Source of the DNA: Acidimicrobiales bacterium
GTDB lineage: Bacteria > Actinomycetota > Acidimicrobiia > Acidimicrobiales > CATQHL01
Assembly: GCA_965242895.1 (NCBI GenBank)
Contig: OZ251507.1
Location: 626,276 to 690,275, forward strand
DNA length: 64,000 nucleotides
Direction of reading: 5' to 3'
In this document: positions 10,262-50,497 of the stretch, piece after piece
Layout: each line of letters begins with the position of its first letter
Position numbering within the stretch: position 1 is the stretch's first letter
Program-made: the position numbers and the translations under genes
Notes under the pieces: model-generated
The model's database searches: none
The model's input: only the letters and a program-made list of their open reading frames with translations
What the model was told of the DNA's origin: nothing

Positions 10262-10267
10262 AAAACT

Positions 10268-10308
10268 AGCGTCCGGCCGGACGCCCGCACGGACGACCGG
10301 CCGGACGC
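10268..10308 (+). terminator. GC-rich palindrome downstream of paralog 2 (same arms as 9117-9158, core inverted)
   Basis: AGCGTCCGGCCGG-ACGCCCGCACGGACGA-CCGGCCGGACGC. Confidence 0.5.
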
Positions 10309-10515
10309 AGCCTCAGTAGGCGAGAATTCCGAGAACAAAGGAGAAGACGTATCAGGATGTCGCCGGAGCGAACTGTCTGCACATGGCCGCTCCAGTGCTG
10401 CCAACAGCGCTCAGACAGAGCGCAGATTTCGAGGAAGACGCAACTGCCACAGAGGGAATCCAAAAAATTTTGTCACTATGCTCCCCACATGCGATAGCAT
10501 CGCCTCATAGCGAAC

Positions 10516-12330: not shown

Positions 12331-12356
12331 CAGCAATTATTACCCAATAAGTCACA

Positions 12357-15938: not shown

Positions 15939-17012
15939 TCAGCAAGCAAGCCGCCCAGACACCATCGGCAGAGCTTCGCGTAGTTGGTCACGTTCGGACT
16001 TGCTTGTAAGCGCACGCTGAGCATCCCCAATGAACGCCAACACCCTTTCCGGTTCCGTGGCTTCAAGAAGAACCTCGGAATGCGTAGCCACTACGACTTG
16101 TCCGCCGCGCTGTCGCGCTACCCTGCGGATCAAGTCGTAAACCTGCCTCTGCCAAATGACATGCTGATGGGCATCTGGTTCGTCGAGCAGAATGACCGCG
16201 GCTGGTCTTGCATACAAGAAAGCAAACAGAAGCAGAACTTGCAGCGTCCCACTGCCGGCATTCGAGAGATCCAACGGCCGCTGCAGGCCACGCTCCCGGT
16301 ATTCACTCCGAATATAAGGCTGAGCAGGAGAATAGGTTGGTTTGAGCATTTCAATTCCGCAGAGGTCTTTGATATGCGCGGCAAAGTCATTCCATTCGCC
16401 CTCTCCACGCTCGACAACCTCAAAAAGAAGGTTTCGGAGTATTTCACCTGGCCTGCCTTGTCCTACTAGAAGATCCTGCATTCCTCTGTCACGCCGTGGT
16501 TCTTCAGGTCTAATGCCCATTAGAGGCGGCACGTGTACTATCCCAAGACTTCGCACAGGTTCAGGCGGAAAATCTCTCAGAACATCTTCATCGAGATTCT
16601 TGGCACCTTGAGGACGGACATAGACCATCTCACGATTGGCGTACTCAAATTCGAGGCCACATACCCAGTTCTCCTCGTCCGCAAAACCTTCAACGACGAT
16701 CTCAATCTTGCGAGGCTTACCAGGGCCGTCGGTGACTCTCCGGCCGCGCCAAAGAAGGTTCATTTCACGGAGCGGAACCGAAACGAAATCCCCACGGGTA
16801 ACAGCCACTCCGGTTCGCTTCATCCTAGTACTCTTAGCAGTGGCCTTCTGCTGAGACATCCATCTCTCAAGTCCGAACTTCCAGGTAGCGATTCCTTGAA
16901 GTAATGTCGACTTTCCAGCGTTGTTGGGGCCGGCCAAAACAACCAAATCCTCCAACTCAAAGGTCTCCTCAGTAAAGCGCTTGAAGTTCCTGATTGTTAC
17001 TTTTTGGATCAT
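15939..17012 (-). CDS. ABC/AAA_21-type ATPase (cassette gene 4)
   Basis: The N-terminus is MIQKVTIRNFKRF...LVVLAGPNNAGKSTLLQGI (Walker A). It also has ILLDEPDAHQHVIWQ (Walker B/D-loop) and VVATHSEVLL (H-loop). Confidence 0.8.
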   Translation of the reverse strand: MIQKVTIRNFKRFTEETFELEDLVVLAGPNNAGKSTLLQGIATWKFGLERWMSQQKATAKSTRMKRTGVAVTRGDFVSVPLREMNLLWRGRRVTDGPGKPRKIEIVVEGFADEENWVCGLEFEYANREMVYVRPQGAKNLDEDVLRDFPPEPVRSLGIVHVPPLMGIRPEEPRRDRGMQDLLVGQGRPGEILRNLLFEVVERGEGEWNDFAAHIKDLCGIEMLKPTYSPAQPYIRSEYRERGLQRPLDLSNAGSGTLQVLLLFAFLYARPAAVILLDEPDAHQHVIWQRQVYDLIRRVARQRGGQVVVATHSEVLLEATEPERVLAFIGDAQRALTSKSERDQLREALPMVSGRLAC

Positions 17013-17035
17013 TTGAAGTCAACAACCGACTGCAC

Positions 17036-17533
17036 TCAGGGGAACTTTCTGCAAAGATTCTTATCGGCGAGCAATCTATTTCGCTTTTTCCGATTTTCAG
17101 CAGTATTTCCTGTTGGAAAAACCTTACCCTCCGGAGAGCTCAACAAGTTAGGTTCCTGAAAATCATTACGCAGGTCCTCATCTTTTGAATATAGTAATCT
17201 AGCCCCACTTGCCTCAGCAAGTGCTAATATATGCCGATCATTTGAGCGAATTTTTCCTTTACGGGTTAACCGCTCTTTTGCTGAATCAATCGCTTCCTCT
17301 TTGATGTAGATAAGTCTGCCCGCCCTGTACGCTTGGTTAGACCAATCACTAAATTTACCTACCTTGTTGAGTTCACTGCGTAAAGTCTTTCCCGATTTAG
17401 TTTGCTCGTTTTCTTCAACTACCAAGCGACCTCTGGAATTGATCCAGTTAAAAAACTGTTTACCAGCTTCGCTACGATCTCTCCCTTTCCCGAAAACCTT
17501 ATGCACAGCACTAGCATCTAAGATTCCACACAT
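17036..17533 (-). CDS. PIN-like putative nuclease (cassette gene 3)
   Basis: The acidic residues are spaced as in PIN domains: CGILDASAV (D6), RSNDRHILALAEASGARLLYSKDEDL (D109, D127/D129). Its start overlaps the upstream ATPase stop by 1 nt. Confidence 0.5.
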   Translation of the reverse strand: MCGILDASAVHKVFGKGRDRSEAGKQFFNWINSRGRLVVEENEQTKSGKTLRSELNKVGKFSDWSNQAYRAGRLIYIKEEAIDSAKERLTRKGKIRSNDRHILALAEASGARLLYSKDEDLRNDFQEPNLLSSPEGKVFPTGNTAENRKKRNRLLADKNLCRKFP

Positions 17534-18942
17534 TACAACTTGAGCAACTTTCGTGTTTCTTCCATGAAAAACTGACGGTATGAATCCGGCACTTCGATAA
17601 AATTACCTTCACTATCAAATTTCAAAGAATAAATCTTGACATCCAAATTTCCGCTTTCAAAGTAGAGTATTGAAATGTCGTCAGGTTTCAAGCTTGTTGC
17701 CCTATCTCTAACTTCCATACGAATTCTGTCTATAATGTAATCACTGTGCGTTTCTATAACAAGTTGGCGACCTGAGCCCGCAATCTGGCAAAACAAAGAA
17801 CCTAGAGATGCCTGAGCTCTCGGGTGCAGATGCACTTCTGGCTGCTGTATGAGAAACATGATAGGAGGTTTTATAGTGAATAGTTCTGTTATAACAGGCA
17901 ATACTTGACTAACTCCATATCCAACGTCAATCAAATTTCGATTAGGTCCCTTCACTTTAGTTGCTTTAGATCCGTATTTTTTTATCTGAATCTGAAATGG
18001 ATCACTGCCACCCCTACCTAAACGCTTGATCGAAATCTCATCAAACAGACCTGAAGTTCGGCCAAACTCTTCAAGCGCCCCTTGCAGAGATGGCCAATTT
18101 TCTTCATCCTGCATTTCCGCAAGATAATATGGAACATACAGTCCTTCAGGATCGCGTTCCACGGGGTAAGGATCATATGTTCTAAATGGTTTAAAACGAA
18201 CTGGCGCACTAGCTAACACCCTCTGACTGTATCTTCGCCTAGACCTCATGGGAGAATTAGAGTAACTTTCTAAGAGTTTAATATCCTCATCCGAAGGTTG
18301 CGAAGCGCCTTCTACAATTTCAAATTTAGGTGACTCAGACCTTTCCATTTGCCTCCTTGATCTAAAAAAAGCAAAGCTCATTATCGTATTCATTGGCTCT
18401 ATCCTATGACCGTAGGGACTAGTTCTTAAGTTTCTAGCAGGTTCAGGAAACTTCCATACACCGTTTCTTGTTCCAAAGTACAATGACCTCTCTTCCGAAC
18501 TCTTTGTTTCTCCTTTTTCCTCAAACCAAACCTCCTTTTCAAACTCAAGACGTCTTCTTCTCGGAAATGGAGCAGTTCCTTTACTCTTAAATGTGACCTC
18601 ATAATGAGTTCTGACGGTCTCAAGCTTCCTGCGCCTCCTAGCATCTTGTATACTAAGGTCAAAACCTGCCTGAAAAGTCCGCGCTCTTCCACCTCTTCCC
18701 CTGTGATGCGCAATTTCGTCAAAACTGCCGAGATCGTACGGTTCCTTCTTGAAATTGGGAATGATTCCTTCAAATTCAATATCCTGCAAAGCACGAATCA
18801 AGGCCAAGAACGATGTTTTTCCTGTGCTGTTCTCGCCTACCAGCAGAGTTATGGGCGCCAAGCGGGCTGTTTGCTTATCGCGGAAGCATCGATAGTTCTC
18901 TAGTGTTATACTGTCCATTTGTTCAAACTCCTTTAACCTCAC
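17533..18942 (-). CDS. AAA_15/AAA_21 ATPase with DUF3696-like C-terminus (cassette gene 2)
   Basis: ITLENYRCFRD...ITLLVGENSTGKTSFLALIRAL (Walker A), MFLIQQPEVHLHPRAQ (Walker B), VIETHSDYIIDRIR. The C-terminal ...ISILYFESGNLDVKIYSLKFDSEGNFIEVPDSYRQFF resembles DUF3696. Confidence 0.8.
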   Translation of the reverse strand: MRLKEFEQMDSITLENYRCFRDKQTARLAPITLLVGENSTGKTSFLALIRALQDIEFEGIIPNFKKEPYDLGSFDEIAHHRGRGGRARTFQAGFDLSIQDARRRRKLETVRTHYEVTFKSKGTAPFPRRRRLEFEKEVWFEEKGETKSSEERSLYFGTRNGVWKFPEPARNLRTSPYGHRIEPMNTIMSFAFFRSRRQMERSESPKFEIVEGASQPSDEDIKLLESYSNSPMRSRRRYSQRVLASAPVRFKPFRTYDPYPVERDPEGLYVPYYLAEMQDEENWPSLQGALEEFGRTSGLFDEISIKRLGRGGSDPFQIQIKKYGSKATKVKGPNRNLIDVGYGVSQVLPVITELFTIKPPIMFLIQQPEVHLHPRAQASLGSLFCQIAGSGRQLVIETHSDYIIDRIRMEVRDRATSLKPDDISILYFESGNLDVKIYSLKFDSEGNFIEVPDSYRQFFMEETRKLLKL

Positions 18943-18948
18943 AGAATA

Positions 18949-20205
18949 TCATATATCTGTATCGGCATTCTTATTTGAAGGCAAGCTCTTCCGCAACCTC
19001 ACCGTGAAGCGGTCATCATCTTCGATCAAGTCTGGGGCGGTGCCGTTGTGCTCCCGCATTGAGCGTATGATTATATCTGGTATGCCCATCCCTAGATGCT
19101 CAATATAACGATAATCCTTCAGCATTTCCGCCAGAAAAGCATTTCGGGGGACACGTCTGCCTTCTTTTATTTTTTCCACGGTGACACCTTTGGGGAGCTT
19201 GCCTGGAGAAATGACTTCTAGACGATCTTCGTACAACGACACCTCGATGTCAGTACTATAGAACATGTAGTCGCGGTGAGCGACTGCGTTCACAATTGAT
19301 TCTCGGACAGCATCTGCTGGAAGAGCATCTCGACGTATGCGTCGAGCGCCAACTAGATAAGACTCAGTACCTACGTTACGAGTAATAAACTCCTGAGCCC
19401 TGTCTATGACTCCCTTTTCTAATACCCTCTCGCCACTATCTATTATTGATACTAATGGGCCTCTAATCCTTTCCTCATCAATAATATTGTAGCTCTTTCT
19501 CGTTCCAGAAAATACTGTAGCCGTAATGCTCGACTGGGGAAGTTGTCGATTAGGATTCTTGCCGAACAACAAGAGAGAAGCAACAGTGCTCAAGGTAGTT
19601 CCACCTTCTTCTGCAAGAAAATCCATGCTCGTTAGAATCCTAAGCCAACTAGCTTCATCGGTTATGTCCGGAGATACACGATTTCGGATCACATCAAAAT
19701 AGTTTTTTATTCTTACTAAGTCTAAACTACTCAGAGTAGTATCTGGAACGGATTTAATATCATAGCAAAATATCTGGGGTGCTTGATAAAGTCGTCCCTC
19801 TTCTTCACGCGTGGCTTCTCTAGATGTTTTCCTAGCACGAATAAAAGTAACCCAGGAATTGCCGCGCTTAGCCTTATGAGGTTTTTCTGGACTATCGTCT
19901 GACAAACGAATTATCCCAACGTATTTTTTGCCTTCTAGTCGGATTGTGCGCCAATGAGGGATGATCCGAGGCTGTAAATTATCTCGTGCTATATTCATTA
20001 CCCATTCTTCAGCCTCTTTAGGTGTTCTGCTCAACCCGGTTATGGTGCCGTCATCCTCCACACCTAATAAGATTTGCCCCCCGTCGAAATTGAGAAATGC
20101 TGACATCTCTTTCGAAATCGAATCCGGGTGAGCGTCGTCCCTTTTGAATTCAAGAACTGAGCTTTTGCCCGAAAAAATCAACTCGCGCAATTCGAATTCA
20201 TTCAT
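18949..20205 (-). CDS. AlbA_2 (Schlafen-like) plus HATPase_c_4-like putative DNA-binding protein (cassette gene 1)
   Basis: The N-terminal SSVLEFKRD...SAFLNFDGGQILLGVEDDGTITGL is the AlbA_2 motif. The C-terminal ESIVNAVAHRDY...IEVSLYEDRLEVISPGKLP...RVPRNAFLAEML...IEHLGMGI is HATPase_c_4-like. Confidence 0.8.
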   Translation of the reverse strand: MNEFELRELIFSGKSSVLEFKRDDAHPDSISKEMSAFLNFDGGQILLGVEDDGTITGLSRTPKEAEEWVMNIARDNLQPRIIPHWRTIRLEGKKYVGIIRLSDDSPEKPHKAKRGNSWVTFIRARKTSREATREEEGRLYQAPQIFCYDIKSVPDTTLSSLDLVRIKNYFDVIRNRVSPDITDEASWLRILTSMDFLAEEGGTTLSTVASLLLFGKNPNRQLPQSSITATVFSGTRKSYNIIDEERIRGPLVSIIDSGERVLEKGVIDRAQEFITRNVGTESYLVGARRIRRDALPADAVRESIVNAVAHRDYMFYSTDIEVSLYEDRLEVISPGKLPKGVTVEKIKEGRRVPRNAFLAEMLKDYRYIEHLGMGIPDIIIRSMREHNGTAPDLIEDDDRFTVRLRKSLPSNKNADTDI

Positions 20206-28982: not shown

Positions 28983-29046
28983 AAGAGAAGGGGGCTGCGA
29001 CTAGGCGGGAGCGGCAGAATCCGCCGAGCTTATATATGCTGAGATC

Positions 29047-29631
29047 ATGACTATTCGCGGCACGCTAGCGGTAACCGGCGACGACGCAGCAGACGCCCTG
29101 GTAAACGAGGATCCCTTGGCTCTGCTTCTGGGGATGCTCCTCGACCAGCAGATACCCATGGAGTGGGCGTTCAAATCGCCGATGAGGCTGGCAGATCGCC
29201 TAGATGAAGGGTTCACTGCGGCTGAGATCGCTTCTATGGACACGGCCGAGTTGGAAAACGTCTTTTCCGCCAAGCCTGCGCTTCACCGCTTCCCTGCTGC
29301 GATGGCGCGACGCTCCCAGGACCTCTGTGCACACATCGTCGAGCGCTACGGCGGTAGACCTGAACGCATCTGGGAAGAAGCCGAAAGCGGAGGGGATCTC
29401 TTCGAGCGAGTGCGGGAGTTGCCGGGCTACGGAGAGGAGAAGACGATGATTTTTGTGGCGCTTCTAGCGAAGCGTTTCGGCGTCGCTCCCTCAGGCTGGC
29501 AACGCCACGCCGGCGCTTTCGCTGACGGGCAGCCGAGGTCGGTCGCCGACATCGACGGCCCTGAGGCGTTGGGACGCGTACGCGCCTGGAAGAAGGCGCA
29601 GAAGGCCGCTGGGCTCTCCAAGCGGGACTAG
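29047..29631 (+). CDS. HhH-GPD-type base-excision DNA repair family protein
   Basis: LAVTGDDAADALVNEDPLALLLGMLLDQQIPMEWAF..PMRLADRL...ELPGYGEEKTMIFVALLAKRFGV matches the conserved actinobacterial HhH-GPD-type family, as far as I recall it. Confidence 0.7.
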   Translation: MTIRGTLAVTGDDAADALVNEDPLALLLGMLLDQQIPMEWAFKSPMRLADRLDEGFTAAEIASMDTAELENVFSAKPALHRFPAAMARRSQDLCAHIVERYGGRPERIWEEAESGGDLFERVRELPGYGEEKTMIFVALLAKRFGVAPSGWQRHAGAFADGQPRSVADIDGPEALGRVRAWKKAQKAAGLSKRD

Positions 29632-29712
29632 GTCTCGAGAGGTGTGCGGCGGGCACAGCGGGGGCGGCGACAGCTAAGACAGTTAGGGGGCAAGGGTGGG
29701 AGATGGTGAAGC

Positions 29713-32700
29713 CTAGGAATTTAGATAGTAGCCCGAACCAAAAATGATTCCGTCGTAGAGCACCACGTAAGAACGCTTCTGCCCTACTCTGCCCGTCTCA
29801 GGATTGATGAACCAGTACTCCTCCGTCCAGGCTCCCTCAGGAATGGCGCTTGCGATGATGTTGCGGGTAAAGAAGTTCCCACCGCCGTCCTGGAGATCGT
29901 AGGTATTCTCTCCGACTATGGACGGGTCGGCGGCGTTCGCTAGTGAGACGCCCTCGGTGTCCAGCACGAACACGTAGCGCTCGCCGTCTATGTAGCCCCC
30001 ATCGGGGTCGGAGAACTCTTCGAAGGCCTGCTCGCCTATTTCCTTGTAGCGATCGATGGCACGCTCGAGGTACCGCTCGACCACCTCCTCCTTCGAAAAG
30101 TAGTAGCCCGAACCGAAAATCAAACCGTCGTGGAGTACGACCCAAGTCCGCCTCAGTTCGTCCCTCAAATTCAAGGGATTGGTAGCCATGTACTCCACCC
30201 AGGCGCCTTCGGCTGAGGCTGCCTGCGAGACTTTCTGGTGCACTAGAACTCCCTCGCTGTCGGTGAGTCTCGACACGCTGCGGCCTACCAGGGAAGGATC
30301 GCCGGCGTGCGCCAGCACCTCCCCTTCGGGCGTCGTCGCGCTCACATAGAACTCGCCGTTTCTGAACTTCCCGGAGGCATCGGAAATCTGAGTGAAGGCT
30401 TCTTCTCCAAGTTCGTCGTAGAGGGCGATGGCGTCGGCCACCTGCCGGCGCGCCCAGGAATCTTCAGTGATGTAGTAGCCCGAACCGAACACGTAGCCGT
30501 CGTAGAGCACAGCCCACGACCGCTTCGGCTCTTCGACTCCGCTCGCTGGATTGGGAAAGCGGTATTCCAACCAGCTTCCCTCGGGTGTGGCGCTGTCCAG
30601 GATGCCCCGGACGACGTAGCGGTTGTCGCTGTCCTGCAGATCGAAGAGGTTCCGACCCACCAGGGAGGGGTTTCCGGCGTGCGCCGCGCCAACGCCAGAC
30701 ATGTTCAGCACGTACACGTAGTACTCGCCGTCTAGGTAACCTCCGCCGGGACGAGATATCTCCCTGAAGGCGGCGAAGCCCACCTCTTTGTATCGCGAGA
30801 TGGCGTCGGCTGCCAACGTTTGCGCCAGTTCTTCTTCGGTGAGGTAGTAGCTCGCGCCGACCACGTAGTCTCCGACTGTCACGACCCAGGAGCGCTTCAG
30901 TTCTCCTGGGTCGTCTCCTGTTTCGGACGATGCTGCGTCTCTGGGACTGACGACCCAACTGCCAGCAGAAGAGGCTGCTCCCAGGATCTTCGAAACGAAC
31001 GGATCCTCACTCCCTCCCACGCCGTTCGCAGCATTTCCAACCACCAGGGATGGATCGGCAGAATTCGCCAGGAAGATCCCCTCTGAGCTCAGAGCGAACA
31101 TTTCGATGCCTTCGATTCCGAGGTCGCTGTCGGGATCGGATATCTCAACAAGGGCAAGTCTGCCGATCTCTCCGACACTTCTCACCACGCGGGCCACCTG
31201 GGACTTCGCCAGTTCGTCTTGGGAGGAGTAATAGCCCGCCCCGAAGATGAGGTCACCCACCAGCCTGACCCAGGAACGCTTCAGTTCCTCCTCCCCGCTC
31301 ACCGGATTCACGTGCCTGAACTCAGTCCACGCCCCCGACGGAGTGGCTGTCCTCGTGATTTGCCTGAGAATGTAGGTTCCTTGGCTGTCCCGCAGGCCAT
31401 AGAGATCCTGACCCACCTGCGAACGGTCGGCGGCGTCTGCTCTCACGCTGCCGTCGGTACCTACCACGTAGACGTAATGTTCTCCGTCCTTGAAGTTGCC
31501 TGCGGGATTGGAAATCCGGGCGAACGCCTGCTCTCCCTCCGACTCGTAGAGGTCTACTGCGTCGACCACCAACTGCTTAACCCGTTCCTCCTCGCTGAAG
31601 TAGTAGCCAGCCCCTAACACGACGCCGCTGCTCACCTCTACCACCCATGAACGCTTGAACTCTTCCACACCAGTCACGGGATTCAAACGACGATAAACCA
31701 CCCACGCACCCTCAGGAGTAGCCGCATCGATAATCCTCGGAATAAACAACTCACCCCTACTATCCCTCGCGCCCGAACGATCCGAACCCACCAACGACGG
31801 ATTCGCCGCATGCGCCAACGACACCCCCCTAGCACTCAACCCAAACACATACGACTCCCCAACCTTGAAATCGCCGTTCGGATCGGAAATCCGAGCAAAC
31901 GCACCCGCACCCATCTCCTCATACAAAGCCGCTGCCTCAGCCACCAACCACTGAACCCACTCCTCCTCGGTAAAATAATAGCCTGCGCCCAGTACAATGC
32001 CGTCTTCTATCTCTACCACCCACGAACGCTTGAGCTCTTCCACTCCAGTCACGGGATTCAAACGACGATAAACCACCCACGCACCCTCAGAAGTGGCAGC
32101 GTCGACGATCCTCGGAATGAACAACTCACCCCTACTATCCCTCGCGCCCGAACGATCCGAACCCACCAACGACGGATTCGCCGCATGCGCCAACGACACC
32201 CCCCTAGCGCTCAACCCAAACACATACAACTCTCCAACCTTGAAATCGCCGTTCGGATCGGAAATCCGAGCAAACGCATCCTCACCCATCTCCTCATACA
32301 GAGCCGCTGCCTCAGCCACCAACCGCTGAATTCGCTCCTCCTCGTCTGAGTAGAATCCCGCACTAAATATGTATCCTCGGTAAAGCGTAGAGTATGTACG
32401 CTTAGGCTCTTCTACACCAGTTACTGGATTCAGGAACCTGTATTGAGCCCAAAGTGACGGGCTGTTGGACGCCGAAATGATGTTGCGAACCACGTAAGTG
32501 CCTTCGCTGTCCTGCAGGTCGAACTGATCCTGTCCCACCAAGGAGGGGTCGGCTGCGTGAGCCAGAACCCTGCCGCCGGTGCTATAGACAACCACGTACA
32601 ACTCGTCGTCGATGAACTCACCCTCCGGATCGGATATCTGTTCAAACGCCTCTTCGCCAACCTCGTCGTAGAGAGCGATGGCGTTACTCGCCAAGAGCGT

Positions 32701-35700
32701 CACATACTCCTCTTGGCTGATGTAGAAACCTGAGCCAAATACAACGCCGTCGCTAGCCTCAACCACCCACGAACGCTTCAACTCCTCCACACCGCTCACC
32801 GGATTCAAACGACGATAAACCAACCAGGCGCCCTCAGGAGTGGCCGCATCAATGATCCTCGGAATGAACAACTCACCCCGGCTGTCCACCGCATCCGAAC
32901 GATCCGAACCCACCAACGACGGATCCGCCGCATGCGCTAGACTGACGCCGTCAGCCGCAAGCGCGTACACATAATACTCGCCGTCGACGAACTCACCCTC
33001 CGTATCCGAAATCCGAGCGAACGCCCCCTCGCCCACCTCGTCGTAGAGCGCAACGGCGTTGTCCGTCAGTTGCTGAGCTAATTCTTCCTCTGTCAGGTAA
33101 TAGCCGGCTCCTAACACGACGCCTTCGCTCACCTCCACCACCCACGAACGCTTGAGTTCCTCCACGCCGCTCACCGGATTCAAACGACGATAAACCACCC
33201 AGGCGCCCTCAGGAGTAGCAGCGTCGATGATCCTCGGAATGAACAACTCACCCTGACTGTCCCTCGCACCCGAACGATCCGAGCCCACTAACGACGGATC
33301 CGCCGCATGCGCCAACGACACCCCCTCCGCGCTCAACCCAAACACGTAGTATTCCCCGATTTTGAAGTCGCCGTCCGGATCGGAAATCTGAGCAAACGCC
33401 TCCTCGCCTTCCGACTCGTATAACGTAGCGGCAGCGGTCACCAACTGCTTCACCCGATCGATCACTCTCTGCTCAGGAAGGTAATAACCCGAAGCGAATA
33501 CATACCCGTCGTGGAGCACCGAGAGGGAACGTTTGGGTTCTTCCTCTCCGCTCACGGGGTTCGTGAACCTGTACTCGGACCAGCCGCCAGCAGCGGACGC
33601 GCTCGAAAGAATGTCCCGAACCACATAGGTGCCTTCGCTGTTCTGCAAATCGAAAAAATCCTGTCCCACCACCGACGGATCTACCGCATGCGCCAGACTG
33701 ACGCCTGCTGTCGTCAAAACATGCACATAAAACTGGCCGTCTCTGAAATCATTACCTGGAAGCGAAATATACTCGAAAGCATCCTCCTCTCCCCAGATCT
33801 CGTAGAGTTTGATGGCGTCGGTCACAAACAACCTCACCAACTCCTCCTCGGAGAGGTAGTAGCCAGCCCCGAACACGACGCCGTCGCTCGCTTCCACTAC
33901 CCACGAACGCTTCAACTCTTCCAACCCGCTCACCGGATTCAAACGACGATAGACCACCCAGGTTCCGTCAAAAGAATCGCCAATGGCGTCATCGTCGATG
34001 ATGTCGTGCGGAATGGACGGAATGTACAGCCCATCCTGGGTCTCTTCTTCGTCAGCAGCAGCGTCGATAATCTTCTGAATGAACAACTCGCCGCGGCTGT
34101 CCCTGGCCTCCCAACGATTCTGCCCCACCAAGGAGGGATTCGCCGCATGCGCCAACGACACCCCGTTCGGGCTCAGAGCAAACACATAAACTTCGCCGTC
34201 TATGAACCCTCCCTGCGGGTCTGAAATCGCCTCAAACACCCCCTCGCCTTCAGCCTCATAAAACTTCAGGGCGTTATCCACCAATTTCTTCACCAATTGC
34301 TTTGGATTTCTGCTACTTTCGGAGGGGAAACTAGAACTAAACACGTGCCCGTCGTAGAGCACCGACCAGGAGAGCCTTGACTCCTCAATTCCACTCGTCG
34401 GATTGGGTAACTTGTAGTCGTACCAAGCGCCGAAAGGGGTGGCGACAGACATCAGGAGATCAATGACATAGTTTCCTTCGCTGTCCTGCCAATCAAATCG
34501 TATGTTGCTCCCGGCCAACGATGGATCGGCAGGATATGCTCGAACAACTCCCGCTCTCGTGAGTACGAGCGCATTGAAGTCGCCGTATGTGAAATCACTC
34601 TCCGGATCGGAAATCCTGGCAAACGCCTCCTCCCCCAACTCGTCGTAGAGGTCGATGGCGTCGTTTACCATCTGCTGAGCGAATTGTTCTGACGTCGGGT
34701 AATAACCGGCGCCCAACACGACGCCTTCGCTCGCCTCCACCACCCAGGAACGCTTAATTTCCTCTATGCCGCTCACCGGATTCAAACGACGATAAACCAC
34801 CCAAGCGCCCTCAGGGGTAGCAGCGTCGATTATCTTCTGAATGAACAACTCGCCCTCGCTGTCCCTTGCGTCCGAACGATCGGTGCCCACCAACGACGGA
34901 TCCGCCGCGTGCGCCAATGACACCCCGTCTGAACCTAGAGCGAACACATAAATCTCGCCGGCCGCAAAGCCACTTGGGGATTGCGATATCGTCGTAAACG
35001 CCTGATCGCCCTCCGCTTCATACAGAGCCGCCGCCCTCTCCACCATGATTTGCGTCCACTCCGCCTCGGTGATGTAATAGCCGGAGCCGAACACGACGCC
35101 GCCGTGGAGAACTGACCACGACCTTTTCGGCTCTTCTACCTGACTCGCTGGGTTCGTGAAGCGGTACTCCGACCAGCCGCCGCTGGCGGTAGCGCTGTTT
35201 AGAACGCCGCGGACTACATAGACGCCTTGGCTGTCCTGCAGATCAAAAATGTCCTGACCTAGGAGATCTGGGTTTGAGTGTGCATAGGTCGTGCCGCTGG
35301 TGCTTAAGACGAACACGTAGAACTCGCCGTCGATGAAGCCGCCGCCCGGGTCGGAGATGAGATCGAAAGCATCCTCTCCCATTTGGTCGTAGAGAGCGAT
35401 AGCGTCGGCCACCATCTGCTTGACTCTCTCGGGCTTGGAGGAGGGTTCTGGCCTTTCAGTCGCTCCTGGCTCTGTGGGCGAGGTGGGAGAAGTGGGCGAG
35501 GTAGGCGAGGTAGGCGCAGTAGGCGAGGTAGGAGAATCGGGAGGATCACCCTCAGGGGGCGACGGCTGAGCAGGGCCGTCTTCCCCTGCGGGACCGGTGG
35601 TCGTAGAAGTCGCAGTGACGCCTGTGCCGGGGGGGTCGGTAGGCCTCTCTCCGGAAATGCTAGGTAATCTCGTCTCTTCGGTTGTCGGGGAAGTGTCGCC

Positions 35701-35946
35701 CAATTCTTCCTCTTCGGCAGCGCCTCCGCAAGCAGACGCCGTCAACGCAAGGGACACAGCCAGAGCCAAAATGAGGCGTGCGCGGCGGGGTCGGAAGTGG
35801 ATGGACTTGACACCGGCTGACCGAGCGCGGGCGGACCGTGTGGGGGCGAGCCGAGCACCGGCGAACCGAGCGCGGACGAGCCGAGCACCGGCGAACCGAG
35901 CCCAAGTCGACTTGAATACGGCCAAACGAGTTGGTCGCTGATTCAT
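29713..35946 (-). CDS. giant lipoprotein of 15 tandem single-Cache (sCache_2-like) domains
   Basis: The ATG at 35946 has an AAGGAG RBS 12 nt upstream. The N-terminus has an Arg-rich RR region and the lipobox LALTASAC, followed by a PTSPTSPTSP linker. Fifteen ~125-aa units then follow the pattern A..LY.E.GE.AF..ISDP.G.F.DGE.YVF.L...G..LAHA..PSLVG......DS.G......I..A...G.W..YR..NP.SG.EE.KRSW.V...G.V.G.GYY. Confidence 0.85.
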   Translation of the reverse strand: MNQRPTRLAVFKSTWARFAGARLVRARFAGARLAPTRSARARSAGVKSIHFRPRRARLILALAVSLALTASACGGAAEEEELGDTSPTTEETRLPSISGERPTDPPGTGVTATSTTTGPAGEDGPAQPSPPEGDPPDSPTSPTAPTSPTSPTSPTSPTEPGATERPEPSSKPERVKQMVADAIALYDQMGEDAFDLISDPGGGFIDGEFYVFVLSTSGTTYAHSNPDLLGQDIFDLQDSQGVYVVRGVLNSATASGGWSEYRFTNPASQVEEPKRSWSVLHGGVVFGSGYYITEAEWTQIMVERAAALYEAEGDQAFTTISQSPSGFAAGEIYVFALGSDGVSLAHAADPSLVGTDRSDARDSEGELFIQKIIDAATPEGAWVVYRRLNPVSGIEEIKRSWVVEASEGVVLGAGYYPTSEQFAQQMVNDAIDLYDELGEEAFARISDPESDFTYGDFNALVLTRAGVVRAYPADPSLAGSNIRFDWQDSEGNYVIDLLMSVATPFGAWYDYKLPNPTSGIEESRLSWSVLYDGHVFSSSFPSESSRNPKQLVKKLVDNALKFYEAEGEGVFEAISDPQGGFIDGEVYVFALSPNGVSLAHAANPSLVGQNRWEARDSRGELFIQKIIDAAADEEETQDGLYIPSIPHDIIDDDAIGDSFDGTWVVYRRLNPVSGLEELKRSWVVEASDGVVFGAGYYLSEEELVRLFVTDAIKLYEIWGEEDAFEYISLPGNDFRDGQFYVHVLTTAGVSLAHAVDPSVVGQDFFDLQNSEGTYVVRDILSSASAAGGWSEYRFTNPVSGEEEPKRSLSVLHDGYVFASGYYLPEQRVIDRVKQLVTAAATLYESEGEEAFAQISDPDGDFKIGEYYVFGLSAEGVSLAHAADPSLVGSDRSGARDSQGELFIPRIIDAATPEGAWVVYRRLNPVSGVEELKRSWVVEVSEGVVLGAGYYLTEEELAQQLTDNAVALYDEVGEGAFARISDTEGEFVDGEYYVYALAADGVSLAHAADPSLVGSDRSDAVDSRGELFIPRIIDAATPEGAWLVYRRLNPVSGVEELKRSWVVEASDGVVFGSGFYISQEEYVTLLASNAIALYDEVGEEAFEQISDPEGEFIDDELYVVVYSTGGRVLAHAADPSLVGQDQFDLQDSEGTYVVRNIISASNSPSLWAQYRFLNPVTGVEEPKRTYSTLYRGYIFSAGFYSDEEERIQRLVAEAAALYEEMGEDAFARISDPNGDFKVGELYVFGLSARGVSLAHAANPSLVGSDRSGARDSRGELFIPRIVDAATSEGAWVVYRRLNPVTGVEELKRSWVVEIEDGIVLGAGYYFTEEEWVQWLVAEAAALYEEMGAGAFARISDPNGDFKVGESYVFGLSARGVSLAHAANPSLVGSDRSGARDSRGELFIPRIIDAATPEGAWVVYRRLNPVTGVEEFKRSWVVEVSSGVVLGAGYYFSEEERVKQLVVDAVDLYESEGEQAFARISNPAGNFKDGEHYVYVVGTDGSVRADAADRSQVGQDLYGLRDSQGTYILRQITRTATPSGAWTEFRHVNPVSGEEELKRSWVRLVGDLIFGAGYYSSQDELAKSQVARVVRSVGEIGRLALVEISDPDSDLGIEGIEMFALSSEGIFLANSADPSLVVGNAANGVGGSEDPFVSKILGAASSAGSWVVSPRDAASSETGDDPGELKRSWVVTVGDYVVGASYYLTEEELAQTLAADAISRYKEVGFAAFREISRPGGGYLDGEYYVYVLNMSGVGAAHAGNPSLVGRNLFDLQDSDNRYVVRGILDSATPEGSWLEYRFPNPASGVEEPKRSWAVLYDGYVFGSGYYITEDSWARRQVADAIALYDELGEEAFTQISDASGKFRNGEFYVSATTPEGEVLAHAGDPSLVGRSVSRLTDSEGVLVHQKVSQAASAEGAWVEYMATNPLNLRDELRRTWVVLHDGLIFGSGYYFSKEEVVERYLERAIDRYKEIGEQAFEEFSDPDGGYIDGERYVFVLDTEGVSLANAADPSIVGENTYDLQDGGGNFFTRNIIASAIPEGAWTEEYWFINPETGRVGQKRSYVVLYDGIIFGSGYYLNS

Positions 35947-36242
35947 TGTTCGGACATCTCCTTGATGATTGCTTGATTGCGTCGTTGATAGCGGCGTCTG
36001 AGACGGGCCGGCACCTAACAGCACCAGCACTTAGCAGTAGCAGACGGGGGACTCTTGCTGGCATCGTGTCGAAACGGCGCAATGCCTGCACTTAGTCTAT
36101 GTAACTTCAGGTAACTTGAGTTTACTGACTTCTAAATGGGCGAGCATCTCCACGGAATCCAACTCTTGAACGGAGAGTTCTCGCCCGCTCCCCCTCCCCG
36201 GCCTCCGGGCTTGCTTCTCCAGAGGCTCAGCCTAGATGCTTG

Positions 36243-37055
36243 CTAGGGCGGCGTCTCCTCCCGTCGACGCGGACTATGCCCCGTCAGAACGGCGTCGTGG
36301 CCGCGGCGATCCAGCCAGCCAAGCACCAGAGAAATGCAGCGCGGGTCATAGCGCAGTCGGTGGCTTCCGGCATTTAGCACTCGGAGGTCTGCCGCTCCGT
36401 GGGCGTCGGCTATGACACGGGCGTCGATGGGGGGCACTAGTTCGTCGTCGGCTCCGTGAACTACTAGAAGCGGACGCGGCGCCAGTCGGCTGGCAGCAGC
36501 GGCGGCGGAGATTCCTCCTAGACCGCCCGCCCACTCGTCGAAGTCCGCTGGGAAGTCGTCGTCGCTGATCACTCCGACTTCTCGAGAATGCACAAGAAGA
36601 CCTTCGGCGTTGGTTTCCCAGTCGACGAAATCCGCTCGAGCAGCAACCGACACCGCTCCTCCGACCTGCGGCAGGTCAGCCGCTGCAGCGAGACCGAGAG
36701 AGGCCCCTGTCCCGAAGCCCGCCACCCAGACGCCCGTGACGGGAGTGGCGGTGCACACGAACTCGACCGCTGCGCGGATGTCATCCAGCCAGCCAGGAAG
36801 CGAGAAGTTGCCTTCGGAACGCCCACAGCCTCGGTAATTGGGCACGAACGCCGTCCAGCCCATGTCTTCGACGAAACGGTCGGCGAGAACGTGATACGAA
36901 GTGCCGGCTTTCTTAGCGCCGCCGGACGCAGCCGGGAAGCCATGACAGAGGATCACAGCGTTCCGAGGCGTCCGACGCGGGGCGCCGTCGGCTCGGAGAG
37001 GCTGCGCCAAGTAGCCCGACAACTTCAGCGAACCAGAAGTGAAATGCGCTTCCAT
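36243..37055 (-). CDS. alpha/beta hydrolase family protein
   Basis: ...AVILCHGFPAASGG...FVPNYRGCGRSEG...VWVAGFGTGASLGL...LLVVHGADDELVP... shows a hydrolase-fold pattern. The nucleophile elbow is atypical (GFGTG). Confidence 0.6.
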   Translation of the reverse strand: MEAHFTSGSLKLSGYLAQPLRADGAPRRTPRNAVILCHGFPAASGGAKKAGTSYHVLADRFVEDMGWTAFVPNYRGCGRSEGNFSLPGWLDDIRAAVEFVCTATPVTGVWVAGFGTGASLGLAAAADLPQVGGAVSVAARADFVDWETNAEGLLVHSREVGVISDDDFPADFDEWAGGLGGISAAAAASRLAPRPLLVVHGADDELVPPIDARVIADAHGAADLRVLNAGSHRLRYDPRCISLVLGWLDRRGHDAVLTGHSPRRREETPP

Positions 37056-37085
37056 TCGATCTGGCTGACCGACCTGAGCTCAGAC

Positions 37086-37517
37086 CTAGCGAACTGGATT
37101 ATTGGGCGCAGACCGACCTGCGTCCTTGCCCGAAGACCGGTTTGCGTCCCCGACAGAAGACCGACCTGCGTCCTTGAGATTAGACCGACCTGCGTCCTTG
37201 CCCGCCGAGCAGTCTGCGATCTTGCTCGAACGAGTGCGCCTGCCCAGTCGTGCGATGCGTCTTGACGCTTCACGGAAGGCGCGTCGGCGGTAGAGGCGGT
37301 AGCCGCGGTTGCGAGCCTCGGCGAGCATGTCGGGAGCGAAACATATGTAGAGCTCCGAAGCCAGCACCTCATCAATAAGTGAGCGGGGCGTCGAACCCTC
37401 TTCTGAGTTCACGTCGCCTTCCGAACTCACGTCGTCGAGATCGTAGACGACGCCCGAACGCTTGTCTCCAAGATAGCGATGACCAGCAACCTGCCGCGGT
37501 CTATACACGTTCAGCAT
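37086..37517 (-). CDS. hypothetical protein with C-terminal 8-aa repeats
   Basis: ORF only. The C-terminal GKDAGRS-type repeats are encoded by the 24-bp tandem repeat at 37110-37205. I recognised no motif. Confidence 0.3.
   Translation of the reverse strand: MLNVYRPRQVAGHRYLGDKRSGVVYDLDDVSSEGDVNSEEGSTPRSLIDEVLASELYICFAPDMLAEARNRGYRLYRRRAFREASRRIARLGRRTRSSKIADCSAGKDAGRSNLKDAGRSSVGDANRSSGKDAGRSAPNNPVR
37110..37205. repeat. 4 x 24-bp tandem repeat (AGACCGACCTGCGTCCTTG core)
   Basis: Units start at 37110, 37134, 37158 and 37182 and are contiguous, with no spacers. Confidence 0.85.
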
Positions 37518-37899
37518 TCTAGAAGACCATCAGCATTCCAAAAAGCGACCAACTCCAACCCAAGTGGTATAATTTCTGGAATAATTTCGCAAGAATTTTC
37601 GCATCCAACCTTTTAGCAGGCATTTCTAAGCCTAGCTCTGAGATCAGACCGAAGATTCGAAGGCTTCGTGTCCCCGTTCCAACGAATAAGACCGGTTTAA
37701 ATTGGGAGGGGTTAACTATTAAACATGCTGGCAAGGACAACGTGATCTGGTGCGAAGAACTTCCCGCAACAGATCAGTTGCCGGTCGTGGAACCGCTCCA
37801 TGCCAGAGAGGAACCAGAAAGACCAGTGCTCGAACCGCGCCGCTCCGTTCTACGCAGAGACGTCATGGAAGGCGGCGATGTGTCGCAGACAGATTAAGA

Positions 37900-38949
37900 G
37901 TGAGTTTCGGGGAGGCACTCTCCACGGCGCGGCGCGCACTCGGCATCTCGCAGAGCGAGATGTCGGAACGGACAGGGGTTGCTCAGGCTGCGCTCTCTCG
38001 CTACGAAAACGATCTGAGAGAGCCGAACGGGGAGATACTCGATGCGCTAGCGGGAGAACTCGGACTCACTCCTGAGTTTCTCCGCAGATCAGACAGGATG
38101 CAAGGAGCGTTTCTTATAGACGCTCACATGCGGCGCAGGGCGACGGCACCAGCGAAGGTCTGGAGGCGGCTTGAAGCTCAACTTAACCTTTACAGATGCC
38201 ATGTTCGTCTCCTGCTAGACGAAATAGACGTGCGTGCAGACCTACGCATCCCCTATTTCGACCCTGACTCGGTCTACCCGGGGGAAGCCGCCCGCATGAC
38301 GCGGACGCAATGGAGAATGCCGACTGGGCCGGTGCAAAACCTAGTGGGATGGATGGAGTCGGCCGGTTTCTTGATCTTCGACAAAGACTTCGGGACGCCC
38401 CGAGTGGATGCACTTTCCCTGTTGGCAAGCGGCTATCCGGTGATGCTGCTCAACGAACAGGCGCATACGGAAAGACGTCGATTTACTCTGGCCCACGAAC
38501 TAGGGCACATCTGTCTGCACAGCGAGTATCAAAGCGACGACGTAGAAGCCGACGCGAACACATTCGCCTCAGAGTTCCTAATGCCCGCCGAAACGATCCG
38601 ACCCCAACTCCGCAACCTGAGCGTCGGGAAGCTGCATAGCCTAAAGCGCCAGTGGAAGGTTTCCATGCAGGCGCTTATCGAACGCGCCTACCAACTCGAA
38701 ACCATCGGTTCCAAGCAATGCTCGAACTTCTACAAGATTTTTAGTCGGAACGGATGGCGCAAGCGTGAACCTCTCAGCGACGAACTGCCGCCAGAAAACC
38801 CTTCCTTACCGAAAGACATCGGTCGGACGTTTCTGGAACGGGGATTGACTGCCGAAGAGATTGAAACCATGACCGGTTTTGCTCCAGGAACAGGACGATG
38901 CCCGTTCTTGCCAGAGAGGCTGGAGAGGCCTGGGCTGCGCATCGTCTGA
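37900..38949 (+). CDS. XRE-family HTH fused to ImmA/IrrE (COG2856) zinc metallopeptidase domain
   Basis: The HTH is LGISQSEMSERTGVAQAALSRYENDLREPNGEILDALAGELGL and the HEXXH motif is FTLAHELGHICLH. The start is uncertain: GTG at 37900 is preferred over the Arg-rich extension from 37750. Confidence 0.8.
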   Translation: MSFGEALSTARRALGISQSEMSERTGVAQAALSRYENDLREPNGEILDALAGELGLTPEFLRRSDRMQGAFLIDAHMRRRATAPAKVWRRLEAQLNLYRCHVRLLLDEIDVRADLRIPYFDPDSVYPGEAARMTRTQWRMPTGPVQNLVGWMESAGFLIFDKDFGTPRVDALSLLASGYPVMLLNEQAHTERRRFTLAHELGHICLHSEYQSDDVEADANTFASEFLMPAETIRPQLRNLSVGKLHSLKRQWKVSMQALIERAYQLETIGSKQCSNFYKIFSRNGWRKREPLSDELPPENPSLPKDIGRTFLERGLTAEEIETMTGFAPGTGRCPFLPERLERPGLRIV

Positions 38950-47987: not shown

Positions 47988-48438
47988 TCCACGCAGTCGA
48001 TCTCTTCTGCGGTATTGGCGGTCTGACGCACGGGCTTGCCCGCTCCGGGATCACAGTCAAAGCGGGCATTGACATAGACTCTTCCTGCCGTTACCCCTAC
48101 GAGGCCAACAACCCTGATGCCCAGTTCTTGACGGCGGACGTTCGTGACGTAAGCTTCGGCGACATCGCAAAGCACTATGAGGGCGCCGACGTTTCATTGC
48201 TCGTGGGGTGTGCACCCTGCCAACCATTCTCTGCTCATACACGAAAGACCGCTAATTCGAAAGCGGACGACTGCTCGCTGCTAGGAGAATTCTCCAGACT
48301 CATCAGAGAGGGTCAGCCCGACATCGTATCAATGGAGAACGTTTCGGGTCTGCGATGGCTAAACACATCGGCAACGCAGTCCCGATGAAACTTGGAAAGG
48401 CAATCGGAAACTCGATATTGGATGCTGAAAATGTCTGA
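47984..48438 (+). pseudogene. dcm: remnant of a C5 cytosine DNA methyltransferase (internal deletion plus frameshift)
   Basis: Motif I is DLFCGIGG, motif IV is GCAPCQPFS and motif VI is SMENV. The frame then terminates. In another frame, immediately after, motif X appears (KHIGNAVPMKLGKAIGNSIL, ending in TGA at 48436-48438). Motifs VII-IX and the TRD are missing. Confidence 0.75.
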
Positions 48439-49780
48439 GCAAAAAGCCAAATACAAGATGAGCATCAGCCTCAACGTGCTGAACCATCTCGGCCTGCACC
48501 TCTACAGCAACATCTCGGCAGTGCTGGCCGAAGTGATCGCTAACTCCTGGGACGCCGACGCTACGGAAGTACGGGTCGACTTCGACATCGGCGGCAAGGT
48601 CATAAGAGTCAGCGACAACGGCACAGGAATGGACGTAGACGACATCAACGAAAAATACCTGCGAGTCGGCTACCAAAAGAGAGAAGTCGAAGGGTATGAG
48701 ACCCCGGGCGGCCGCAAGCCCATGGGCAGGAAAGGGATAGGAAAGCTTTCACTATTCTCAATCGCCAACAGCATCACTGTCTATACGAAAAAGGAAGGGG
48801 CAGAAGGAGAAGCTTTTCGACTGGACGCAAACAAGATAAAAGAGGCCATCCAAACTGAAGGCCCTTCGTCCAGCGATCCTTCCTCAGCAGAACAATACGA
48901 ACCCGAACTCATAGATTTCGCCAACAAAATTGACGGACAAGGGACGATAATTGAAATTAGAGATTTGAAGAAAGTCCGCCTCACGACTGCTTCGGTTAAC
49001 GGACTAAGAAAAAAGATCGCCAGAAGATTTGGCCTCATTGCCGATCTGGAAAAATTTAAAATAATAATCGATAGCAAAGAAGTAACCTTTGCTGACCGCG
49101 ATTACTTTCACAAAGCACAGTTCTTATACCAATACGGTGACTACGACTATTCCCAACACTGCACTAACTTGGATGAAAATGGAAAGCAAAACACTAGATT
49201 TGCTAGACAAGGGAGTTTTAACACGCAAGGGAATCCTGATCCTAAAGGTGGCTACAGCATCACAGGATGGATAGCCGTAGCAAGAAAGTCAAGCGACTTG
49301 GACGATGGACCAGACAACGAGGACAACCTGAATAAGATCACAATCCTCGTTCGCAATAAGGTTGCCCAGGAAGATATTCTTCAGGAGTTCAGACTCGGGG
49401 GAATGATTACCAAGTACTTATTCGGTGAAATCCACGCCGACTTTCTAGATAGCGACGATCCAGACTTGGAAGATTGCGCCACCTCCAGCAGACAGCGTAT
49501 CAAGGAAGATGATCCAAGGTACAAAGCATTGCAATCGTTCGTAGATTCAGAGTTGCGCTACATATGGAAAGATACGAACGAACTAAAGAACAAGAAAGGT
49601 ACCAATGCAGCCTATGAGCTGCATCCAAATATTCGCGAGTGGTTCAATAGCCTCAACGGTGATCACAAAAATGCAGCCAAAAAACTGTTCGGCAAGATTA
49701 ATCAACTGCCAATTGACGACTTCGGCGAAAAACGTCGCATATTCATCAGCAGCATACTCGCCTTTGAGAGCCTGAAATGA
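48431..49780 (+). CDS. GHKL (HATPase_c_3-like) ATPase, N-terminal part of an interrupted reading frame
   Basis: LAEVIANSWDADATEV (N-box), SDNGTGMD (G1), GRKGIGKLS (G2-like). It ends at TGA 49778-49780, and the same frame continues open into 49814..50497. Confidence 0.8.
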   Translation: MSEQKAKYKMSISLNVLNHLGLHLYSNISAVLAEVIANSWDADATEVRVDFDIGGKVIRVSDNGTGMDVDDINEKYLRVGYQKREVEGYETPGGRKPMGRKGIGKLSLFSIANSITVYTKKEGAEGEAFRLDANKIKEAIQTEGPSSSDPSSAEQYEPELIDFANKIDGQGTIIEIRDLKKVRLTTASVNGLRKKIARRFGLIADLEKFKIIIDSKEVTFADRDYFHKAQFLYQYGDYDYSQHCTNLDENGKQNTRFARQGSFNTQGNPDPKGGYSITGWIAVARKSSDLDDGPDNEDNLNKITILVRNKVAQEDILQEFRLGGMITKYLFGEIHADFLDSDDPDLEDCATSSRQRIKEDDPRYKALQSFVDSELRYIWKDTNELKNKKGTNAAYELHPNIREWFNSLNGDHKNAAKKLFGKINQLPIDDFGEKRRIFISSILAFESLK

Positions 49781-49813
49781 CGCAGTTTACTTCATAGGCT
49801 AGATGATCTGAAG

Positions 49814-50497
49814 GTGGAGAATCTGCCCGCATTAAAGAATGTATTCATTCAATTGGACGACTTGGAAGCTAGTTCTTATTACAACATTGTCAAACAAAGA
49901 ATAGAAGTGATCAATAAATTAACCAATTTAGTAGATAACAATGCACGAGAAAAAGCACTGCAAGAACACCTATACAACCACTTGTGGTTACTAGACCCTT
50001 CTTGGGAACGAGCAACCAGCACCGCGCGCATGGAAACCCAAATTATGAACATCATAAATGATGTCGACAAGTCACATAATTATGAAAAATATAGAGTCGA
50101 TATATATTATACTACTACCGGCAACAAACACGTAGTAATTGAACTTAAGCGCGCAAATCGAACACTGACTACTTCCGATTTATATATTCAACTTAATAAA
50201 TACAAATCTGAAATATTAAAAGTATTACAGGATGCAGGCACAGATGAACCATTAGAGTTCATCTGTGTAATCGGTAAACAACTGAAAGATTTGAGTGAGC
50301 CTGGGGGTGAGTTCACTTCCGAAAAATCACTGGAAGCAGTAAACGCCAGAGTGGTGCTATACGAGCAATTGATCCAGAACGCTCTTGAGCAGTACAAAGA
50401 TTATCTCGACAAAGCCAAGGATGTTGGCATGACTTATAGACTCATCCAGAGCATTGACAAAGACGACGTCAGTGAGATGAATCCCGCCTCGGATTGA
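49814..50497 (+). CDS. DUF4263/Shedu-like PD-(D/E)xK nuclease domain protein (in frame with the GHKL ORF)
   Basis: LQEHLYNHLWLLDPSWE...YRVDIYYTT..NKHVVIELKRAN gives the D...ExK core with the preceding WLLDP motif seen in DUF4263-type nucleases. Confidence 0.6.
   Translation: MENLPALKNVFIQLDDLEASSYYNIVKQRIEVINKLTNLVDNNAREKALQEHLYNHLWLLDPSWERATSTARMETQIMNIINDVDKSHNYEKYRVDIYYTTTGNKHVVIELKRANRTLTTSDLYIQLNKYKSEILKVLQDAGTDEPLEFICVIGKQLKDLSEPGGEFTSEKSLEAVNARVVLYEQLIQNALEQYKDYLDKAKDVGMTYRLIQSIDKDDVSEMNPASD

Follow-up and report, generated by a model that had tools for sequence, protein, structure and literature searches.

A gene on the minus strand of the analyzed window, a 64,000-nt stretch of contig OZ251507.1 (assembly GCA_965242895.1, positions 626,276–690,275), encodes a 2,077-amino acid (aa) protein built from 15 tandem sCache_2 units (29713..35946, ATG at 35946). 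The host is an uncultured sponge-associated Acidimicrobiales bacterium. That the product is an exported, nonsignaling protein of 15 sCache_2 ligand-binding modules maintained by selection is firmly supported by the data presented below. In prokaryotic signaling, Cache domains are considered the principal extracellular input modules, and here they are used in bulk without any output. The protein displays a known domain in an undescribed but widespread architecture, of which it is an extreme and not a unique member. We tentatively propose that it is a nonsignaling, multivalent surface binder of small organic acids, a function in which our confidence is slightly less than even.

The original prediction, made from the nucleotide sequence, described a lipoprotein of about 2,077 aa with 15 tandem Cache-like units. 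A single 2,077-aa open reading frame (ORF), in which a custom hidden Markov model (HMM) delimits 15 units, agrees with this description. The Pfam sCache_2 model (PF17200) matches 14 stretches of the protein with an E value of 9e-155 and a score of 510 bits, compared with a cut-off of 25; the unit missed by Pfam is presumably the degenerate U12. The dCache_2 model (PF08269) also matches, with 440 bits, as expected from the origin of dCache_2 by duplication of sCache_2 (PMC4822843). NCBIfam yielded only partial matches, scoring far below the cut-offs, to the sensor regions of MctS (a monocarboxylate kinase) and CtpM (a malate chemoreceptor). In the PDB, the profile built from the 15 units retrieves TlpB, 4EXO/2QHK, Adeh_3718, and PscD.

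An AlphaFold model of U5–U6 was based on 40 two-unit fragments of this protein and two of its orthologs. The model (predicted local distance difference test [pLDDT] 96.4, predicted template modeling score 0.78) shows the sCache_2 fold, in which a PAS-like alpha/beta core comes after a long N-terminal helix. Its best Foldseek matches are sCache_2 domains of chemoreceptors, with template modeling (TM) scores of 0.56–0.71: about 0.70–0.71 for 4EXO (root mean square deviation [rmsd] 2.6 Å), 0.69 for 4K08, and 0.57 for TlpB. The units therefore hit Cache models and fold as predicted. In this model, the last strand of U5 passes after a single residue into the 31-residue first helix of U6, so that the array lacks flexible linkers. 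Tandem-PAS structures superpose badly on the two-unit model. We also considered a dCache-like pairing of neighboring units and rejected it, as no helix is shared between units and the model superposes on dCache structures with TM scores of only 0.2–0.36 and an rmsd of 13–19 Å. In dCache_2 proteins, two modules share one stalk helix, in contrast to the 15 units with a helix each described here.

No further Pfam or NCBIfam domain reaches the curated cut-off in the protein, and a hydrophobicity scan finds no transmembrane helix in the mature part, the h-region of the signal peptide being the only hydrophobic 19-mer. The chain ends three residues past U15. The predicted lack of a membrane span or signaling domain after the units thus holds, and a signal transduction receptor (chemoreceptor, histidine kinase, or cyclase) was rejected because there are neither flanking transmembrane helices nor a cytoplasmic transmitter. 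The sCache_2 domains of chemoreceptors (PscD, 5G4Y; Adeh_3718, 4K08; Vibrio parahaemolyticus 4EXO/2QHK; Helicobacter pylori TlpB, 3UB6) belong to the same Pfam family, share the fold and the extracytoplasmic location, and carry the Tyr/His/Tyr/Lys carboxylate-binding residues that most units have here. However, each chemoreceptor has only one such domain, set between two transmembrane helices and coupled to a cytoplasmic transmitter, whereas here 15 copies follow a predicted lipid anchor, with neither a second membrane span nor a transmitter. In a 2016 census, all Cache families except SMP_2 were associated with known output domains (PMC4822843).

Layout of the units and their ligand pockets

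The 15 units are arranged head to tail at residues 167–2074, and all lie on the minus strand. Each is 124–128 aa long except U4, in which an acidic insert of 30 aa raises the length to 156 aa. To describe their pockets, we used HMMER alignments with PscD and Adeh_3718 to map seven positions. In PscD, propionate is bound by Tyr90, His103, Tyr143, and Lys156, with Trp92 and Trp145 forming a sandwich and Phe126 at the back (PMC5062169). Sensors of lactate and pyruvate use the same motif (PMC11844446). Both the PscD contacts and the 4EXO/K1 motif (PMC11844446) correspond to conserved columns of the units. The Tyr/His/Tyr/Lys tetrad is complete in ten of the 15 units (U1, U2, U4–U10, and U13). One residue differs in U14 (Arg for Lys) and in U15 (Asn for His), U3 and U11 have a partial tetrad, and U12 has lost it.

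Two subtypes had been recognized in the original prediction and taken as a hint of two ligand specificities. Both are real, but they are not the only ones, as at least five pocket signatures can be distinguished. Type A, with the signature Y[FYHV]HVYFK, comprises U1 (35074..35448, YFHVYFK), U5 (33481..33855, YHHVYFK), U8 (32350..32721, YVHVYFK), and U13 (30472..30843, YYHVYFK), which are 49–62% identical to one another. Type B, with the signature Y[FY]HIYRK and an internal identity of 65–88%, comprises U2 (34699..35073), U4 (33856..34323), U6 (33097..33480), U9 (31975..32349), and U10 (31600..31974), all reading YFHIYRK, and U7 (32722..33096), reading YYHIYRK. The second sandwich aromatic is kept in type A and replaced by Arg in type B, which suggests that type B may favor a more anionic ligand. 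The acidic loop insert of U4 (DEEETQDGLYIPSIPHDIIDDDAIGDSFDG, 33964–34053) is also present, with changes, in the ortholog sharing 91% aa identity (L010).

U3, U11, U12, U14, and U15 form classes beyond A and B. U3 (34324..34698) is divergent and has an incomplete carboxylate tetrad (NLYIYLR). U11 (31228..31599) reads YYDLFHK, a signature found exactly at the matching position of a second ortholog (L004). U14 (30100..30471) reads YSHHYAR and is nearly matched there (HSHHYAR). The terminal U15 (29725..30099) reads YFNTYFK, the signature of the last unit in all four orthologs compared. U12 (30844..31227, EFNVSRK) is the most degenerate unit, with 24–38% identity to the others; its AlphaFold model retains the Cache fold (pLDDT 89.5), with a ligand loop of pLDDT below 50.

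Pocket conservation extends beyond this protein. In 64 units of four orthologs, 39 have the full tetrad; the hydrogen-bonding positions fall at the 12th–38th entropy percentile, among the more conserved columns, and the specificity positions are variable (51st–72nd percentile). The same pocket signature dominates the 644 units of 150 family proteins. We infer from these residues that most units bind a small molecule bearing a carboxylate and that several ligand specificities may be represented along the array. Membership in the sCache_PC3 group, whose members sense phosphorylated C3 compounds, was rejected: the position of PacP Arg105, five residues after the pocket His, is a Ser in the motif AHAADPSLVG.

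Export signal, copy number, and selection

The longest ORF of the 27–39 kb region is 29713..36030 on the minus strand, and its frame is unbroken for 6.2 kb. Within it, the ATG at 35946 is preceded at 11 nt by a Shine–Dalgarno sequence AAGGAG (35958..35963, minus strand); one is also found in L004. The N-terminus, MNQRPTRL, shares the pattern MNxR with orthologs (MNKRPVRL and MNGRATWL). Public gene calls begin instead at an internal Met178 (35413–35415), giving 1,900 aa here and 1,897 aa in the 91%-identical relative. The conserved signal peptide, lipobox, and linker are thereby left out, which makes the database entries look cytoplasmic. As the skipped segment is kept at the protein level in orthologs (LILALAVSLAL[TMV]ASACGGAAEEE), we consider the long form to be real.

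The predicted signal peptide of 73 aa (35728..35946, minus strand; LILALAVSLALTASAC) consists of a very long Arg-rich n-region, the h-region LILALAVSLAL, and the lipobox TASA/C. The positively charged n-region, the h-region, and the lipobox with its Cys are those of a lipoprotein, and RPRRARLILALAVSLALTASA followed by Cys fits the PROSITE-style rule. Cys73 (35728–35730) is the sole Cys of the mature protein, and lipobox and h-region are conserved in four orthologs (L010, L004, P0003, and P0004). The protein is therefore probably lipid-anchored, with Cys73 as the putative lipidation site. Among the N-terminal features first proposed, the lipobox and the Pro/Thr/Ser linker were recovered; the Arg pair of the signal does not form a canonical twin-arginine translocation (Tat) motif. 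PRRARLI has an Arg where the motif S/T-R-R-x-F-L-K requires a hydrophobic residue, a regular-expression scan found nothing, and the Arg pair is absent from the signals of P0003 and P0004. Tat export was rejected on these grounds.

Within the n-region, a 30-bp tandem repeat of 2.7 copies (35821..35901, minus strand) encodes ARFAGARLVR repeats. It adds about 25–30 Arg/Ala-rich residues and is missing from the 91%-identical ortholog, the n-region being expanded in this strain only. The signal is followed by an acidic linker rich in Pro, Thr, Ser, and Gly (35449..35727, minus strand), which corresponds to residues 74–166 and, with Cys73, to 94 aa, including 21 Pro and 19 Thr; Glu is also abundant. 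From its composition we take it to be disordered. The mature form would have 2,005 aa, a mass of 218 kDa, and an isoelectric point of 4.3.

As the original prediction recognized, assembly errors might have inflated the number of repeats. We consider this unlikely. The highest DNA identity between units is 89%, for U9 and U10 (88% at the aa level), and the next pair reaches 74%. Logan unitigs from three other samples tile positions 29000–37200 at even, single-copy depth, with 0–6 mismatches per contig. Two orthologs, L010 (91% aa identity) and L004 (rate of nonsynonymous substitution [dN] 0.22), have 15 units each. The unit order corresponds one to one in L010, and also in L004 except for the type-B units U6 and U9, whose sequences point to recent homogenization. 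In more distant orthologs, the number of units is 16 and 18. A low-depth contig present in two runs connects 30210 with 30413 and so lacks 202 bp of U14, its anchor being only 22 nt long; it probably reflects k-mers joined across repeats or else a minor strain variant.

The ratio of nonsynonymous to synonymous substitution rates (dN/dS) is 0.27 and 0.31 overall and varies from 0.12 to 0.53 per unit. These values indicate purifying selection that is somewhat relaxed, as is common for surface proteins. Orthologs sit in Acidimicrobiales metagenome-assembled genomes of about 2.4–2.8 Mb (OZ241998.1 and CATQHL010000001.1).

Related proteins and possible functions

Searching 1.84 billion representative proteins with a profile retrieved 289 clusters (50% identity) with E values of 1e-30 or below. 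Among the best 151 of these clusters, which the following counts cover, 137 proteins have at least three units, 44 at least five, and 12 at least eight. An N-terminal hydrophobic signal or anchor is present in 133 and a lipobox-like motif in 31; in 130 the chain stops no more than 30 aa after the last unit, and only four have a later membrane-like segment. Output domains are almost never present in the family, which spans bacteria and archaea, including the sponge symbiont Cenarchaeum and Candidatus Dependentiae, and reaches 18 units per protein. The Acidimicrobiales proteins, with 15–18 units, are the largest. Single-unit lipoproteins also exist (P0151). Several relatives carry other modules: P0045 displays seven units on an autotransporter barrel, P0066 has its units behind Laminin_G and Ig domains, another relative has them behind a 5'-nucleotidase domain, and in P0103 they are fused with the solute-binding modules SBP_bac_5 and Peripla_BP_6/ANF_receptor. 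None of these fused exceptions has a signaling transmitter.

A genome scan for relatives used type-B units as the query. Matches in Limisphaerales (L006–L008) were rejected as arrays, being 828-aa proteins with a single C-terminal unit. P0005 and P0009 (L003 and L009) form a divergent branch with 29% identity, in which the signatures YFD.YFK and ..Q.YHK alternate strictly, suggesting two-unit super-repeats. At positions 1–7611 of locus L009, a surface protein of more than 3,451 aa with Bact_surface_Ig-like and fn3 repeats is immediately followed downstream by P0169 (11 units, 1,561 aa), with several transposase genes nearby.

In databases, these proteins are named "hypothetical protein," "cache domain-containing protein" or, wrongly, "cytochrome c." We found no description of tandem sCache_2 surface proteins or of poly-Cache lipoproteins in the literature covered, which was mostly without subscription journals, nor any trace there of PF27194 "TP_0008," a name from precomputed annotations. 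On this coverage, the original prediction is not refuted by an already described family of such lipoproteins, and the search it suggested for other poly-Cache proteins yielded the approximately 290 clusters above. According to one comparative study, sponge-associated Thaumarchaeota are enriched in Cache Pfams, for which it proposed a role as host-recognition factors; it described no arrays (PMC7848895).

Of the candidate roles put forward in the original prediction, ligand capture by a surface binding array best fits the conserved carboxylate-binding residues. The protein would be exported and lipidated at Cys73, and the Pro/Thr-rich tether of about 94 aa would hold the 15-module string outside the membrane. 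Most modules retain the residues that, in sCache_2 domains of chemoreceptors, contact the carboxyl group of C2–C4 organic acids, and variation at the specificity positions produces several classes of pocket. With no second membrane span and no transmitter, the protein itself cannot signal ligand occupancy, so that its most likely activity would be to capture small organic acids or related anions at many sites and to retain them. It might then form a tethered, high-capacity binding layer at the cell surface. The fusion with solute-binding modules in P0103 supports such a binder. Tethered ABC or TRAP solute-binding lipoproteins of monoderms are likewise lipid-anchored extracytoplasmic binders of small molecules without catalytic or signaling parts. 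In contrast to the protein described here, they have an unrelated fold, a single site each, and genes usually beside a transporter; no cognate transporter was seen here. A transport solute-binding protein was rejected, the fold being Cache and the neighboring genes encoding a hydrolase, an HhH-GPD repair protein, and a DHA2 efflux MFS protein.

Several observations weigh against a binder of small organic acids. A tethered binder would not obviously be faster for uptake, and no transporter for organic acid uptake is encoded nearby. No recurrent partner gene was found across five other lineages (L003, L009, and L011–L013). The search for RNA data returned only runs of unspecified type with even, DNA-like depth over intergenic DNA. 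Other sCache_2 domains bind urea (TlpB) or phosphorylated C3 compounds (PacP). For a core function, a dN/dS near 0.3 would be a relaxed value, and the adhesin-type scaffolds of some relatives (autotransporter, Laminin_G and Ig) fit adhesion equally well.

Adhesion or host recognition is the first of the other explanations, and one we regard as rather unlikely. The array would bind carboxylate-bearing groups, such as uronic acids, sialic acids, or acidic glycoproteins, displayed by sponge-matrix polymers or by host cells; through avidity, the symbiont would be retained in the mesohyl or marked as "self." Linker-free tandem arrays are typical of adhesins. Repeat-built adhesins, such as autotransporter passengers and Ig/fn3 giants, are also very large, acidic, and signal-bearing, with many tandem domains, and some family members carry an autotransporter anchor. 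The gene was detected in sponge metagenome runs, its closest relatives also come from sponge metagenomes, the sample names of L010 and L011 agree, and family members occur in Cenarchaeum. The display of units on an autotransporter (P0045) or beside Laminin_G and Ig domains (P0066), the Ig/fn3 protein of 3,451 aa adjoining P0169, and the recognition role proposed for the Cache Pfams of sponge Thaumarchaeota (PMC7848895) point in the same direction. However, the repeats of adhesins are Ig-like or beta-helix spacers, whereas here they have a sensor fold with conserved pocket residues. Binding of polymers is hard to reconcile with solved sCache_2 pockets, which enclose small ligands between two aromatics (PMC5062169). 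The family also occurs in lineages without a known animal host, and a comparison of 350 genomes of sponge Actinobacteriota makes no mention of Cache (PMC11706023).

It is improbable, in our view, that the protein is an accessory subunit presenting ligands, whose loaded units would dock on a separate membrane sensor or transporter. Analogues would be the solute-binding proteins that stimulate chemoreceptors and the lipid-anchored, multi-Cache alpha2delta subunit of calcium channels. Alpha2delta is anchored by glycosylphosphatidylinositol, is extracellular, carries several Cache modules, binds small molecules, and has no output domain of its own. The protein described here is likewise extracellular, predicted to be lipid-anchored, multi-Cache, and devoid of output, and alpha2delta is among its Foldseek matches as a weak one (8x90_B). 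However, alpha2delta has dCache_1-type modules and a VWA domain, four Cache modules instead of 15, and is an obligate channel subunit, so that homology holds only at the superfamily level. Signaling via separate binding proteins is well documented (PMC8050422), and a gene for an HTH/Peptidase_M78 regulator lies nearby in three genomes. Nevertheless, none of the ten loci inspected has a conserved adjacent sensor kinase, chemoreceptor, or uptake system, and 15 sites far exceed the need of a docking partner.

An equally improbable role is that of a structural envelope protein, an S-layer-like coat or spacer in which the Cache fold would serve as a building block and the pocket ligand as a structural cofactor. 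The low isoelectric point, single Cys, very large size, and linker-free units are in keeping with it, as are a relative located two genes from an SLH-domain protein and the retention of U12 despite its lost pocket. Yet conservation of the ligand-contacting residues exceeds that of the average column, and the pocket classes, which a spacer would not need, are kept position by position across species. An S-layer or wall-anchored protein was rejected, as the Pfam scan found no SLH, LPXTG, or other wall-binding module. Finally, an assembly or annotation artifact, either an inflated repeat number or a decaying pseudogene, is extremely improbable, for although short-read unitigs are interrupted by the 375-bp repeats, only in the U6–U10 zone where type-B units repeat, and public calls start at Met178, the 6.2-kb frame is intact, dN/dS is about 0.3, two orthologs have 15 units in mostly matching order, and unitigs from three other samples cover each segment at single-copy depth.

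If capture of organic acids by these units is correct, they would constitute a new kind of device for extracellular nutrient capture or surface recognition, relevant to symbiont life in the sponge matrix. Studies based on domain counts that read "Cache enrichment" as more signaling might count such arrays instead. The protein would also offer a natural library of related pockets that differ in specificity on one polypeptide, useful for deriving the specificity rules of sCache_2 and for biosensor design. More speculatively, and with somewhat less confidence than for the function of this protein, poly-sCache_2 proteins could form an unrecognized, widespread class of nonsignaling surface "ligand antennae," in which bacteria and archaea repurposed a sensor domain for modular, multivalent, multispecific capture of organic acids, especially in host-associated lineages such as sponge symbionts. 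The Acidimicrobiales proteins of 15–18 units, with specificities conserved by position, would be the most elaborate.

Upstream region and neighboring genes

The 296-nt spacer upstream of the gene contains an AT-rich element (36097..36136, minus strand) composed of a partial palindrome, GTAAACTCAAGTTAC, and a direct repeat of AAGTTAC. This element (TTTAGAAGTCAGTAAACTCAAGTTACCTGAAGTTACATAG) is conserved in L010 and partly in L004, and at the corresponding place L001 has a different, perfect palindrome (TGTTCACTAAAGTGAACA). It may be regarded as a candidate promoter or operator. The upstream region shows no riboswitch or known RNA at gathering scores or at E values up to 1, and no sigma-70-like promoter or terminator above chance.

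The gene order alpha/beta hydrolase, poly-Cache protein, HhH-GPD protein (convergent), MFS protein, and PDH E1 is kept in four Acidimicrobiales genomes. The conserved MFS neighbor belongs to the DHA2 efflux family, and the synteny therefore provides no functional link. The regulator gene mentioned above encodes HTH_3 and Peptidase_M78 domains (ImmA/IrrE-like, spr1629 family; 37750–38949, plus strand). It lies upstream of the poly-Cache gene in the window and in L010, and immediately downstream in L002.

Three islands of low GC content are also present in the window. The first (7990–14360, about 50% compared with 60–65% elsewhere) carries a type III restriction–modification pair, an N6_N4 methylase (10516–12330) and a ResIII helicase (12357–14360), alongside two ORFs without a family match. 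The second (15939–20205, 44–47%) is probably a defense island and encodes two AAA_15/AAA_21 ATPases (OLD/Abi-like) and a Schlafen AlbA_2 protein with an HATPase_c_4 domain. The third (48392–50497, about 48%) encodes an HATPase_c_3 protein followed by a protein weakly similar to Shedu SduA_C.

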